From contig JBAZNZ010000003.1 of NCBI GenBank assembly GCA_041648975.1, positions 9,664 to 73,663 on the forward strand: a stretch of 64,000 nucleotides of DNA. The letters are read 5' to 3'. Below are positions 1 to 6,943 of this stretch, piece by piece. Both the position numbers and the translations under genes were made by a program. Positions within the stretch are counted from its first letter, which is position 1. Every line of letters starts with the position of its first letter. This stretch comes from Candidatus Omnitrophota bacterium (GTDB taxonomy: Bacteria > Omnitrophota > Gorgyraeia > 2-01-FULL-45-10). The notes below the pieces were generated by a model that made no database searches, was not told the DNA's origin, and saw nothing but the letters and a program-made list of their open reading frames with translations.

Positions 1-823
1 GGGAGCGGATATAGTCCACAGTCCACAGTCCATAGTCCATAGTTTTAAGGAATGCGACATAACGGACGAAAAGGTTGTTCTCGATGTTGTTACGGAAGTA
101 AGGCCTGATATTGTCATCCATACTGCCGCAATGACGGATGTAGACGAATGTGAAACCAATAAAGATAAAGCTTATAAAATAAATTCCGAGGGGACTTGGA
201 ATGTGGCGCTCGGATGTAAAAAGATTAACGCATCGCTCATTTACATAAGCACCGATTTTGTGTTTGATGGGAAGAAGAAGGAGCCTTACAAAGAGTCGGA
301 TAAAGTCAGCCCATTGAGTGTTTACGGTGATTCGAAGCTTAAAGGCGAAGAGGCCGTGAAAAAGGCTATAAAGAGGTATTTTATCGTCCGAACGAGCTGG
401 CTTTACGGAGGGCATGGCAAGAATTTTGTGGATACCATTCTCTTGAAAGCGAAAGCCGGGCAAACGTTGAAAGTGGTCGATGACCAGTCCGGATCGCCTA
501 CATATACGAAAGACCTGGCTAAGGCGCTGCATGCGCTGTTGGACAAGATGTTCACTGGTAGCGGATTAGAAATTGCGGATTATGGAACATATCACGTGTC
601 AAATTCCGGCAGCGTCTCCTGGTGCGATTACGCGAAAGAGATAATAAGGTCAGCCGGTTTGAAGATAAAAGTGGCGCCGATCTCTTCGGAAGAATTAGAC
701 AGGCCGGCGAAAAGGCCGGCTATGTCTGTGCTGGATAATTCAAAGTTCAGGGTGTTTACGGATTACCGGATGCGTGGATGGAAGGAAGCGTTAAGGGACT
801 ATATGACTGCAAATGTTACGTAA
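1..823 (+). CDS. rmlD: dTDP-4-dehydrorhamnose reductase (RmlD), 5'-truncated at window edge
   Basis: Frame 2 is open from nt 2 with no upstream stop. Translation ...FKECDITDEKVVLDVVTEVRPDIVIHTAAMTDVDECE...YISTDFVFDG...PYKESD...PLSVYGDSKLKGE matches the conserved RmlD core (PDVVINAAAYTAVDKAE / STDYVFDG / YGxSKLxGE). The track start at 131 is an internal Met. Confidence 0.8.
   Translation, partial: GADIVHSPQSIVHSFKECDITDEKVVLDVVTEVRPDIVIHTAAMTDVDECETNKDKAYKINSEGTWNVALGCKKINASLIYISTDFVFDGKKKEPYKESDKVSPLSVYGDSKLKGEEAVKKAIKRYFIVRTSWLYGGHGKNFVDTILLKAKAGQTLKVVDDQSGSPTYTKDLAKALHALLDKMFTGSGLEIADYGTYHVSNSGSVSWCDYAKEIIRSAGLKIKVAPISSEELDRPAKRPAMSVLDNSKFRVFTDYRMRGWKEALRDYMTANVT
13..43 (+). repeat. Tandem heptanucleotide repeat (AGTCCAC)2(AGTCCAT)2 plus partial unit, inside the 5' part of rmlD
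   Basis: Direct reading of nt 13-43: agtccac agtccac agtccat agtccat agt. The unit length is not a multiple of 3. Confidence 0.6.
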
Positions 824-910
824 GGGTAGAGAAGGTTAATTAAGGTTACGTAAGGTTGATTTTTGTAACTTTACGTAACCTTCACTAACTTTCGTAACAT
901 TACGTAACCT
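816..910. promoter_or_regulatory. Array of four perfect copies of the 8-bp palindrome TTACGTAA (816, 846, 871, 900) plus a degenerate copy TTCGTAAC (891). Extended sites GGTTACGTAA are arranged head-to-head and form a 12-bp inverted repeat (842-853 / 871-882). Candidate operator or regulatory element upstream of the dehydrogenase gene.
   Basis: Read directly from the 102-bp gap between rmlD stop (821-823) and ATG 926. The motif spacing is 30/25/29 bp. GGAG Shine-Dalgarno at 914-917. Confidence 0.45.
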
Positions 911-925
911 AAATGGAGATAGAGT

Positions 926-2230
926 ATGTTCAAGGGACTTGAGAAGAAGATTCTAAGCAAAAAGGCGAAGATAGGCATAATAGGGCTCGGTTATGTAGGA
1001 CTGCCGCTTGCCGTCGTCTTCGCTAAAGGCGGATTTGAGACATACGGTATAGATATAGATAAGAAGAGGGTGGACAGGCTGAAGAGGGGCGAGTCGTACA
1101 TATTGGACGTGCCGGCCTCAGATGTCGCAAAGGCCCAGAAGAGCGGCAAGCTGACCGCGACCGCGGACTTCAGTGTCATTAAAAAGCTGGACGCCGTTAT
1201 AATATGCGTCCCTACTCCGCTCAATAAGACGAAAGAGCCGGACGTCTCATACATAGTGTCGGCCGTCGAGAACATAAAACGCCATATGAAACGCGGCCAG
1301 ATAGTCGTGCTGGAATCTACGACATATCCGGGCACTACCGAGGAGGTCATGCTGCCTGTCCTGGAGTCGAAAGACTTTAAGGAAGGAAAGGATTTTTATC
1401 TGGCGTTCTCGCCGGAAAGGATAGACCCGGGCAACGCCAAATATAAGACCGAGAATACCCCTAAGATAATCGGCGGCATATCCGAAGAATCTACGCGAAT
1501 AACGAAGATATTGTATGAACAGGTGATAGAGACGATCATCCCTGTGTCGTCCTGCAAAGTTGCGGAGATGGTGAAACTGCTGGAGAACACGTTCAGGATA
1601 GTGAACATAGGAATGGTGAACGAGTTGATGCTCATGTGCGATAAGCTGGGAATCGATGTATGGGAGGTAATCGAGGCGGCCAGGACAAAGCCTTACGGTT
1701 TTATGCCCTTCTATCCCGGACCCGGCGTCGGCGGCCATTGTATTCCCGTGGATCCGATATATCTATCGTGGAAAGCCAGGGGGCATGGTTTTGAAGCCAG
1801 GTTCATAGACCTGGCGTCCCACGTGAATTCACTTATGCCGCATTATGTGATCGAAAAGGTAACAAGCGGGCTTAACGACCATAAAAAGGCGCTTAAAGGA
1901 TCAAACGTTTTCGTGATGGGAGTTACCTATAAGAAAGACATAAAGGACCTTCGAGAGTCGCCGGCGCTGGAGATCATACATATTTTACAGCAGAAAGGCG
2001 CGAACGTTTCATATTACGATCCCTATCTTCCGTATTTGAAGATGGACGATATGGATCTGAAGTGCGTTAAATTCGATAAGCATACGTTTGAGAACGCGGA
2101 TTGTGTCGTCATAATCACAGACCATTCGAGCGTGGATTACAAATTTATGCTTAAGCACTCGAGGCTCGTGGTAGACACGAGGAACGTATTGAAAAACATG
2201 AAAGACAGGACCAAGATAGTGAGGTTATGA
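926..2230 (+). CDS. Nucleotide-sugar 6-dehydrogenase, UDP-GlcNAc/UDP-ManNAc dehydrogenase family (TviB/WbpA/WecC-like)
   Basis: N-terminal Rossmann GIIGLGYVGLPLAVVFAKGG, catalytic GGHCIPVDP, 434 aa. Typical of the TviB/WbpA family rather than short Ugd. Confidence 0.8.
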   Translation: MFKGLEKKILSKKAKIGIIGLGYVGLPLAVVFAKGGFETYGIDIDKKRVDRLKRGESYILDVPASDVAKAQKSGKLTATADFSVIKKLDAVIICVPTPLNKTKEPDVSYIVSAVENIKRHMKRGQIVVLESTTYPGTTEEVMLPVLESKDFKEGKDFYLAFSPERIDPGNAKYKTENTPKIIGGISEESTRITKILYEQVIETIIPVSSCKVAEMVKLLENTFRIVNIGMVNELMLMCDKLGIDVWEVIEAARTKPYGFMPFYPGPGVGGHCIPVDPIYLSWKARGHGFEARFIDLASHVNSLMPHYVIEKVTSGLNDHKKALKGSNVFVMGVTYKKDIKDLRESPALEIIHILQQKGANVSYYDPYLPYLKMDDMDLKCVKFDKHTFENADCVVIITDHSSVDYKFMLKHSRLVVDTRNVLKNMKDRTKIVRL

Positions 2231-5509: not shown

Positions 5510-6943
5510 ATGAAAAAAATTCTTCTCATAAATCCTCCGTATTTTTACCAGATATTTTCCGGATCCATGGTCAGGGCGATGGTGAGCCCCGGCATAATGC
5601 CTCTGGGGTTGGCCTGTGTCGCAGCTTCTCTCAGGGAAATCTCCTTCAGGGTTGAGATACTGGACCTTAATCTCGTTAAAGACCCCGAAGCAACCTTGAG
5701 ATCCAAGATCAATTCATTTAAACCGGATATTGCGGGTGTTACTTTCACAACACCTTTGTCCGGTATAGCGAAAATTTTGGCCGGAATAATAAAAGACGCG
5801 GACCCGGGTATAATAACGGTCTGCGGCGGGCCCCACGTATCGATACTGCCGGAAGAGACGCTGAAAGATTCGAAGTTTGACGTAGCCGTCTTGAGAGAAG
5901 GGGATCTTTCGTTGAAAGAGATAGCCCTGGATGTTCCATTAAGCCGGATAGACGGAGTAGCCTATAAGGCGCAGGGCGGTATAATGGTAAATCAACCGAA
6001 ATCATATATAGAAAACCTTGATAAGCTTCCCTATGCCGGCGTGGACCTGTTCGATTCCGGTAAGTATACCTATCCAAGGGTTACCGCAAGGAGAAATCCC
6101 GTGGCCTCTCTCGAGACGAGCAGGGGATGTTTTTCGAGATGCTCCTACTGTAATAAATCCATTTTCGGACACAAGTTTCGGGCGAAGAGCGCGGGAAGGG
6201 TCGTCGATGAGGCTGAATTCATCCTGAAATCCGGATACAGGGAAATACACATTATAGACGACGGTTTTACGACCGACATGGAAAGGGCTTTTGCGATATG
6301 CAGCGAAGTGAAGAAGCGAGGCCTTAACTTCCCATGGTATGTACGCGGCGGCGTAAGGGTAGACAGGGTATCGAGGGATCTTCTGCGCGAGATGAAGAGC
6401 GCCGGATGTTACAGGGTGCCTTACGGGATAGAATCCGGCGATCAGTCTGTTCTTGATAATATAAGGAAAGGGATAACGCTTCAGCAGGTTGACAATGCCG
6501 TAAAATGGGCGAAAGAAGCGGGGATGATAGTAGACGGTTATTTTATGATAGGCCTCCCGGGAGAGACGGTCGCATCGGTGGAAAAGTCGATTGCCTTTGC
6601 CCGCAGCCTGGACCTGGATTACGCCAAATTCTCCATAACCGTTCCTCTCCCCGGGACGGAAATGTTTGAAAAACTGAAGAGGGACGGAAGGCTCCTGACC
6701 GAGGATTGGACCAAGTATAATTTCGCGCAGTCCCCGAGGTGCATATATAAGCATGAGAATATCAGCTGGAGCGACCTTGAGATGTACTATAACCGCGCTC
6801 ATAATAACTTCTATTTCAGGCCGGGTTATATACTAAGGCGCTTTATCGCCGGTGTGAAGAACGGCGAACTTCTCGCGTATATTAAAGCATTCTTCGATTT
6901 CGCGGGTAGTATTGTCGTAAACTTTAGGAGGACGCATGGATAG
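5510..6943 (+). CDS. Cobalamin (B12)-binding radical SAM protein (class B), copy 1
   Basis: N-terminal B12-binding-domain signature (MKKILLINPP..., CGGPHVS), radical SAM SRGCFSRCSYCNKS (CxxxCxxC). The track TTG start at 5462 was moved to ATG 5510. Confidence 0.85.
   Translation: MKKILLINPPYFYQIFSGSMVRAMVSPGIMPLGLACVAASLREISFRVEILDLNLVKDPEATLRSKINSFKPDIAGVTFTTPLSGIAKILAGIIKDADPGIITVCGGPHVSILPEETLKDSKFDVAVLREGDLSLKEIALDVPLSRIDGVAYKAQGGIMVNQPKSYIENLDKLPYAGVDLFDSGKYTYPRVTARRNPVASLETSRGCFSRCSYCNKSIFGHKFRAKSAGRVVDEAEFILKSGYREIHIIDDGFTTDMERAFAICSEVKKRGLNFPWYVRGGVRVDRVSRDLLREMKSAGCYRVPYGIESGDQSVLDNIRKGITLQQVDNAVKWAKEAGMIVDGYFMIGLPGETVASVEKSIAFARSLDLDYAKFSITVPLPGTEMFEKLKRDGRLLTEDWTKYNFAQSPRCIYKHENISWSDLEMYYNRAHNNFYFRPGYILRRFIAGVKNGELLAYIKAFFDFAGSIVVNFRRTHG

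Follow-up and report, generated by a model that had tools for sequence, protein, structure and literature searches.

What fills the gap between rmlD and the next gene near the start of this 64,000-nucleotide stretch of a Candidatus Omnitrophota bacterium (contig JBAZNZ010000003.1; the whole 64-kb stretch is called the window below), and is it a feature of this operon alone? The gap is 102 bp long, runs from the rmlD stop codon (821-823) to the ATG of a UDP-sugar (UDP-GlcNAc/ManNAc-type) dehydrogenase gene at 926, and is the sole sizeable gap in the first ~9.6 kb. It is occupied by a palindromic repeat of 98 bp (813..910) resembling an intervening sequence (IVS), and its interest comes mainly from the family to which it belongs, less from the single locus. 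The element is very probably a member of a dispersed family of GTTAC arrays linked to genes for four-helix-bundle (4HB) proteins. With a probability of about 0.7, we read the window copy as a non-autonomous miniature, devoid of an open reading frame (ORF), of an IVS-like selfish cassette.

An earlier, sequence-only reading of this DNA had described the gap as a five-site array of the palindrome TTACGTAA and had proposed a multi-site operator or an RNA element controlling read-through. The sites that it described are confirmed. The exact search of the window returned TTACGTAA at 816, 846, 871 and 900 and at no further position in 64 kb, against an expected count of 0.63 by shuffles; the Poisson probability of at least four such sites in any 92-bp span of 64 kb is ~2e-11. 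The degenerate fifth site is present as TTCGTAAC at 891-898; TTTCGTAA, at 890-897, carries a single mismatch. The inverted repeat of 12 perfectly matched bp (842-853 / 871-882, arms 17 nt apart) was likewise found, and no U-tract follows. The spacing of 25-30 bp proposed for the sites, however, is not the period of the array, which is 10 bp, with the cores at ten-step positions.

The element consists of two facing arrays, delimited by its sequence, the inverted repeats I1-I7 and the hairpin described below. The left arm (815..859, + strand; repeat families D2 and D1) comprises five direct 10-bp units with purine-rich spacers (AAGG), the cores being GTTAC at 815, GGTAG at 825 (degenerate), GTTAA at 835, GTTAC at 845, and GTTGA at 855. 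The centre, TTTTT at 860..864, forms the apical loop and lies where full-length relatives carry the 4HB ORF. The right arm (865..909, + strand), defined by sequence and tandem-repeat search, comprises five inverted units with cores GTAAC at 865, GTAAC at 875, CTAAC at 885, GTAAC at 894, and GTAAC at 904. Tandem repeats of period 10 were detected at 832-861 in the left arm and 865-908 in the right arm, and all five matches to AAGGTTACGTAAGGTT with up to three mismatches lie within the rmlD-dehydrogenase gap. On this framework, the first TTACGTAA site (816..823) belongs to unit 1 and includes the TAA stop of rmlD, the second (846..853) falls on the junction of units 4 and 5, the third (871..878) lies in the right arm, and the fourth (900..907) belongs to the outermost right-arm unit; the degenerate site, TTTCGTAAC, covers 890..898. 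The palindrome is present because the units in the source genome happen to read GGTTACGTAA. The TTACGTAA palindromes have no function of their own and are a side effect of the 98-bp repeat.

On the + strand, positions 815-908 fold into a single long imperfect hairpin at -42.5 kcal/mol (z = -5.8), and the - strand of the element folds at -34.6 kcal/mol. The hairpin (~95 nt) takes up the space between the rmlD stop codon and a point 6 nt short of the next Shine-Dalgarno sequence, GGAG at 915-918, which together with the ATG at 926-928 forms the start region of the dehydrogenase gene (915..928, + strand). The rmlD gene itself (dTDP-4-dehydrorhamnose reductase; 50..823, + strand; Pfam RmlD_sub_bind, E = 9e-81) lacks its 5' end at the window edge, and its final codons (N-V-T-stop) come from unit 1 of the element. 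Stop codons occur in all three + strand frames within each arm and in all three - strand frames across the element as a whole. As GTAAC contains TAA and the 10-nt period shifts the frame by one per unit, each arm closes all three frames, and an upstream ORF therefore ends within the first few units, as rmlD does here. The left-arm spacers (AAGG/GAGG) are Shine-Dalgarno-like, and in full-length copies the 4HB ORF uses the innermost of them.

Conventional signals were not found around the element. A sigma-70-like promoter was not detected in 600-1100, and an intrinsic terminator or attenuator was rejected, as the same interval holds no terminator-like site and the stem is A+U-rich and then followed by CUAAAUGGAG. 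At gathering scores, Rfam gave no match either in the window or at 16 related loci; searched by E-value, it returned only sub-threshold matches of a generic, hairpin-like kind to microRNA precursor models.

The history of the junction was examined in related loci, denoted here by L-numbers; the names of the closest homologues also place the organism in Candidatus Omnitrophota. The closest relative, L002 (GCA_028715235.1), whose dehydrogenase has 94% amino acid identity, has a homologous element between these two genes. Its left arm counts five to six units and its right arm five, all in exact 10-bp phase, and it folds at -46.4 kcal/mol. The cores of the L002 element are GGTTACAT / ATGTAACC, and TTACGTAA does not occur in it. 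Compared with the window, several units show G-to-A on the left arm and C-to-T on the right arm, and the recurrence of the same changes in several units indicates that the units evolve in concert. The palindrome that was first noticed is lineage-specific spacer sequence.

The element is absent from L004 and L005 (79% identity), where the rmlD-dehydrogenase gaps measure 4-17 bp, and the RmlD C-termini of relatives without the element differ (KG* and SARR*). A comparable GGAGAGAG..ATG precedes the dehydrogenase gene in L005, which has no element. From its absence at these two junctions we infer that the element entered the rmlD/UDP-sugar-dehydrogenase junction in a recent ancestor. Additionally, a public read-assembly contig identical to the window, L001, begins inside the element (L001 1-97 corresponds to window 829-925), as expected if the element is a repeat. 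In L003 (81% identical), a different hairpin, ATAACTTATGCA ... TGCATAAGTTAT, which is no GTTAC array, precedes the dehydrogenase gene at 40-95, close to the beginning of the contig.

We searched one genome per prokaryotic species with the pattern GGTTA-N5-GGTTA-N(5-35)-GTAAC-N5-GTAAC, which demands two units on each side. The scan yielded at least 120 loci. Leaving aside chance coding-region matches and a few unrelated arrays, the matches listed share one architecture, in which a short variable centre separates about five GTTAC units from about five GTAAC units, all in 9-10 bp phase. At least 45 loci pass a strict filter for 5+5 units in 10-bp phase. Among the matches listed, the modal unit count is five per arm (39/65 left and 37/65 right), with exactly 5+5 in 25 of 65. 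These matches come from many Omnitrophota metagenome-assembled genomes (MAGs) and one single-amplified genome, from Planctomycetota (Brocadiia, Planctomycetia) and Saganbacteria, from a few MAGs labelled Patescibacteria or Saccharibacteria, and from unclassified bacteria. Several copies occur per genome, with spacers that are uniform within a genome and different between genomes; one MAG harbors at least eight near-identical copies, loop sequence included. The spacers and loop shared within a genome indicate that the copies are related by descent. A scan of viral contigs gave 14 matches, none with the canonical 5+5 layout.

The copies nearly always lie between co-directional genes: among the matches listed, 35 have flanking genes of this kind, whereas 4 lie between convergent genes and 1 between divergent genes. 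Upstream stop codons often lie about -11 to +12 bp from the element and downstream starts often 5-30 bp beyond it; for a minority of copies the gap is wider, at most several hundred bp. The window copy fits this pattern, with 5+5 cores, the stop codon inside unit 1, and the Shine-Dalgarno sequence 6 nt past the last unit.

In the Omnitrophota MAG STD1_168, the GTTAC element of L017, L029, L031, L043, L062, L071, L079, and L109 lies inside a longer conserved composite repeat, with GGACGAG/GGACGAA-type heptamers on one flank and GGCCGAG/GGCCCAC-type heptamers on the other, and the intergenic regions around these composites hold many further 7-8-mer arrays. L124, from an Omnitrophota MAG, shows at 775-849 a head-to-tail array of a fused unit, GGTTAGTAAC, repeated six times; a left and a right unit seem to have collapsed into one and then expanded in tandem. 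The matches in Thermus (L016, L027, L094) are GGTTACGCG-type inverted pairs, and the match in L112, from an Aenigmatarchaeota archaeon MAG, consists of GTTACATTAG arrays; both are at most candidate members of the family.

The full-length relatives connect these arrays with a gene of the PF05635/TIGR02436 family, encoding a 4HB protein of ~130 amino acids that is S23p/Avd-like. In L045, a homologous ORF is framed precisely by arrays of five units each on its left and right; the repeats reach the ATG and resume at the stop codon. In L088, an ORF of ~145 amino acids follows five GTTAC units and is itself followed by a complete 5+5 element. L088 contains two such paralogous cassettes (2096-2660 and 5608-6160), 3.5 kb apart, whose ORFs match PF05635 '23S rRNA-intervening sequence protein' (E = 2e-15 and 6e-16) and TIGR02436 'four helix bundle protein'. 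Both cassettes have a similar small lipoprotein-like gene behind them, and the pair looks like a segmental duplication that includes the element. The PF05635 ORF is also found in the loop in L126-L151, whereas the centre of the window copy is only 5 nt long. In L137 and L140 (~1400-1990), the 4HB ORF lies between two complete small hairpins instead of single arms, an architectural variant.

A metagenome scan with an alignment of the L045/L088-type 4HB proteins resulted in 69 loci. The 24 close homologues have a mean of 4.3 forward units in the 78 nt upstream (background 0.47) and 3.5 inverted units in the 80 nt downstream (background 0.36), and 18 of them have at least three upstream units. 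The two flanks of the ORF are complementary to each other at z > 3 in 29/49 loci overall, and among the close homologues in 19/23. The 4HB ORF is co-oriented with its upstream neighbour in 17 of 19 cases and with its downstream neighbour in 14 of 16, and the gaps around it equal the array lengths, which leaves no room for a promoter. Neighbours of the cassettes are housekeeping genes (hisB/hisH, proA/nadD, queA/ispD, fabD, and radical-SAM/glycosyltransferase genes), and neither a reverse transcriptase nor a recombinase is enriched among them.

More distant 4HB clades keep the architecture, but their repeat motifs differ and the periods vary between 7 and 10 nt: a 7-nt period goes with GGGAT or AGTGA, an 8-nt period with TAGAA, and a 9-nt period with CCCCTTTCA-like units; L114 carries GTAGATT. 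These periods of 7, 8, and 9 nt weaken helical phasing at 10 bp as a general rule. The solved homologues 2GSC and 2RLD contain five chains per entry. A tandem heptamer, AGTCCAC x4.4, occurs at window positions 13-43 (also 1-60), where the N-terminal ~35 residues of RmlD are expected, without closing the rmlD frame, which continues as far as the window edge. Comparable arrays of short period lie beside 4HB genes or GTTAC elements, such as GTAGATT in L114 and TAGTCAC-like repeats in STD1_168. The AGTCCAC array may belong, as one arm, to a second element whose motif is of a different class, or it may mark an assembly break at a repeat.

The element's anatomy, its absence from the more distant junctions, and the multi-copy dispersal, intercistronic bias, and 4HB-gene linkage of its family are established in silico, and the mechanism that we propose builds on them. 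Insertion of the element would have supplied a new stop codon to rmlD and left the downstream Shine-Dalgarno sequence intact. The element would be co-transcribed with the operon, its RNA folding into an interrupted stem of ~45 bp that, by analogy with IVSs, would probably be cut by RNase III. Such a cut would split the polycistronic mRNA without terminating transcription, and the effect on the host would be small, or at most modulatory for rml versus downstream expression. We give RNA folding with RNase III processing slightly less than an even chance. The alternative offered in the sequence-only reading, an RNA structural element, survives in this respect: the hairpin is very stable, its position is transcribed, a U-tract is missing, and the relatives are architecturally similar to rRNA IVSs. 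The other half of that proposal, an operon-specific control of read-through, is unsupported, the element being a member of a dispersed repeat family.

The repeat arrays may further be the cognate binding sites of a pentameric 4HB protein, which could maintain or spread ORF-less copies in trans. This binding is a tentative idea, put forward because the modal unit number is five, the motif changes with the protein clade, and the periods range over 7-10 nt; we hypothesize that such periods suit single-stranded recognition better than B-DNA phasing. More speculatively still in scope, and in our judgment rather doubtful, PF05635 proteins and their flanking repeat arrays could constitute unrecognised multi-phylum selfish cassettes that live inside transcripts, in mRNA operons as well as rRNA. 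The pentamer would then read its own arms, with about one unit per subunit and a motif that co-evolves with the clade, and would drive ORF-less miniatures. The arms would probably be read as single-stranded or hairpin RNA, and spread could involve an RNA intermediate, as with the cousin Avd and its reverse transcriptase in diversity-generating retroelements (DGRs).

Several results weigh against the reading of the window element as a miniature selfish cassette with a functional RNA stem. In the strand-fold test of 35 elements, neither strand had the advantage (sense 17, antisense 16; p = 0.18), and the idea that G-U pairs are selected on the mRNA strand is thus not supported. Spacer complementarity of mirror units (2.78 of 5) does not exceed that of non-mirror units (2.93 of 5), and deviant pentamers are mirrored in 18/70 cases versus 14% expected, the copies not being independent. 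Inverted arrays of one homogeneous unit fully explain the pairing potential, and the hairpin potential could thus be a by-product of such arrays. Mobility is deduced only from copy number, near-identity within genomes, and presence or absence among relatives: a target-site duplication is not visible at the window or L002 junctions, neither a polymorphic site nor a catalytic partner was found, and the search for bracketing arrays revealed no transposase between split arrays. A YhgA-like 'Transposase_31' is one of 34 neighbours of 4HB cassettes. The linkage to the 4HB gene has its own weak points. The 64-kb window contains no 4HB gene by phmmer or an iterated hidden Markov model of 79 sequences, only three ORF-bearing GTTAC-type copies are among the matches listed in the genome scan, and the linkage evidence comes mostly from short metagenome contigs. 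Other 4HB clades carry arrays of 6-9 units, and the agreement of five-unit arms with a pentamer may be fortuitous. Both RNase III processing and the binding of the arrays by the protein rest on analogy.

Competing explanations treat the arms as protein-binding DNA. The units could form a domesticated array on double-stranded DNA, bound on one helix face and acting as a roadblock or as an operon-internal regulator of the downstream polysaccharide genes; candidate binders are an OmpR/GlnR-type response regulator (GTnAC-like direct repeats) or the 4HB protein itself. OmpR-family sites are direct repeats of GTTAC-like cores with a 10-11 bp period, and the direct repeats found here have the corresponding spacing of 10 bp. 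The phase is exact over five units per arm in both the window and L002, the GTTAC pentamer is conserved across phyla while the spacers drift, and the absence of covariation at mirror positions favours sequence recognition over pairing. However, the copies sit between co-directional genes (35:4:1) and not at promoters, a promoter-like site is missing, the flanking genes are functionally unrelated housekeeping genes, and the 7, 8, and 9 nt periods of related clades are not B-DNA helical repeats. Copies within one genome also share loop and spacers, which indicates descent rather than convergent operators, and we consider a domesticated array unlikely. The locus-specific operator of the sequence-only reading, in which TTACGTAA dyads bind a dimeric regulator of the polysaccharide operon, has in its favour the four perfect 8-bp palindromes in 92 bp with none elsewhere in 64 kb. 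It is in practice refuted by L002, whose orthologous element lacks the palindrome. In addition, the repeating unit is a direct 10-bp repeat and not a dyad, the position is intercistronic with no promoter-like site in the region, and the identical architecture, with other spacers, recurs at dozens of unrelated intercistronic sites in many genomes. That reading had itself held that a motif frequent elsewhere would speak against an operator, and the genome scan found the architecture dispersed; we regard the operator as extremely improbable.

Two further explanations accept a repeat or a hairpin and dispense with an IVS-like cassette. A conventional miniature inverted-repeat transposable element (MITE) would be a DNA transposon with an internal deletion, whose arms are ends that hold several binding sites for the transposase; the 4HB gene would be only a passenger. 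Its inverted arms, its multiple copies, near-identical within a genome, and its presence or absence at orthologous junctions all agree with this, and the ends of IS607 carry helically phased direct repeats bound by TnpA filaments (PMC6188088). On the other hand, neither a transposase nor a recombinase ORF was found between or beside the arms; the only gene between them, in the parent-like full-length form, is the 4HB gene. The invisible target-site duplications at the window and L002, the sense bias of full-length copies (17/19), unexpected for a DNA transposon, and a repeat motif that changes with the 4HB protein clade also make a MITE improbable. We judge equally poor the chances of a purely host-evolved intercistronic RNA hairpin, which, like REP/BIME stabilisers, would protect the mRNA or mark a site for its processing and would never have been selfish or mobile. 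The very stable fold, the tight placement between stop codon and Shine-Dalgarno sequence, and the transcribed position are what such a hairpin would show, and REP-like elements also avoid divergent promoter regions. Against it, the core and unit number are conserved across phyla, which a simple stabiliser does not need, strand bias and pair covariation are absent, full-length copies carry a gene, and close orthologous junctions lack the element.

The family of the window element bears on an old problem. The role of the S23p ORF in rRNA IVSs has been open since the early 1990s, as has IVS mobility (PMC4990558). The hundreds of 4HB cassettes and ORF-less miniatures in operons of Omnitrophota and Planctomycetota are a natural data set on both, and the modal five-unit arms with clade-dependent motifs make the binding of an IVS protein to its own arms directly testable. 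GTTAC elements also have practical consequences: they break assemblies, as in the public contig that starts inside one, they give host genes new stop codons and their products new C-termini, and annotators of uncultured phyla can take them for operators or riboswitch-like leaders.

Among known systems, we found no earlier description of such arrays or of intercistronic S23p cassettes in the searchable literature, in which coverage of subscription journals is incomplete. The REP/BIME, ERIC, and Correia/NEMIS families are multi-copy imperfect palindromes of ~100 bp or less at transcribed intergenic positions, between co-directional or convergent genes and often tight against stop codons, and they may form RNA hairpins relevant to RNase III or exonucleases. 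GTTAC elements share with them the multi-copy palindromes of ~100 bp and the transcribed intergenic placement. They differ in having no TA target-site duplication, no IHF site, and no apparent RAYT association, and the five phased pentamer units per arm and the 4HB-gene linkage set them apart from the REP, ERIC, and Correia families. Assignment to REP/BIME proper was rejected, as the element has 98 bp, ten phased units, and no GTAG head, compared with a palindrome of 20-40 nt. Integron cassettes were rejected as well: the core order is GTTAC ... GTAAC, the opposite of RYYYAAC (R'') ... GTTRRRY (R') in attC, which bounds promoter-less cassettes, and the housekeeping genes on either side are syntenic, standing next to each other in relatives without the element too. 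In TRAP and similar rings, n subunits are matched by about n short phased single-stranded RNA repeats, and binding competes with an alternative hairpin. This offers a mechanistic analogy only for the 4HB pentamer, whose fold is unrelated and whose binding is hypothetical.

IS607 ends, with four helically phased 9-bp repeats and cooperative filament binding (PMC6188088), resemble the arms in carrying several short helically phased (~10 bp) direct repeats, an analogy of architecture only. IS607 encodes the serine recombinase TnpA (and TnpB) and lacks terminal inverted repeats, whereas no such genes accompany the GTTAC arrays. Avd has the same PF05635-like fold and family: it is a pentameric, positively charged barrel that partners the DGR reverse transcriptase and binds an RNA stem-loop (bioRxiv 10.1101/2023.10.23.563531; PMC10053308), and the RNA structure that it binds lies beside its own gene. 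The stems bound by Avd are single hairpins of ~9 bp, whereas arrays flank the 4HB cassettes, near which no reverse transcriptase, template, or variable repeat was found.

The S23p IVSs of Coxiella burnetii and Leptospira (PMC4990558) provide a close parallel. GTTAC elements differ from them in location, lying in mRNA operons and not in helix 45 (or 25) of 23S rRNA, and the Rfam search of the window detected no rRNA. They differ as well in their arms, which are regular phased arrays of about five units instead of a unique 28-bp stem, and in their abundant, dispersed ORF-less miniatures, of which the window copy, without an S23p ORF, is one. The 'selfish' IVS of Coxiella, 428 nt long, has a terminal stem of 28 bp and is excised by RNase III; its loop holds the S23p ORF, and tandem heptamers lie just upstream of the ATG; the Xanthomonas S23p homologue is a toroidal homopentamer (PMC4990558). 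S23p IVSs in general are regarded as selfish, and decay of their ORF has been seen (PMC4990558). The window hairpin shares with them the terminal inverted sequences that form a long stem, and the full-length cassettes share the promoter-less sense PF05635 ORF in the loop and the short tandem repeats before its ATG.

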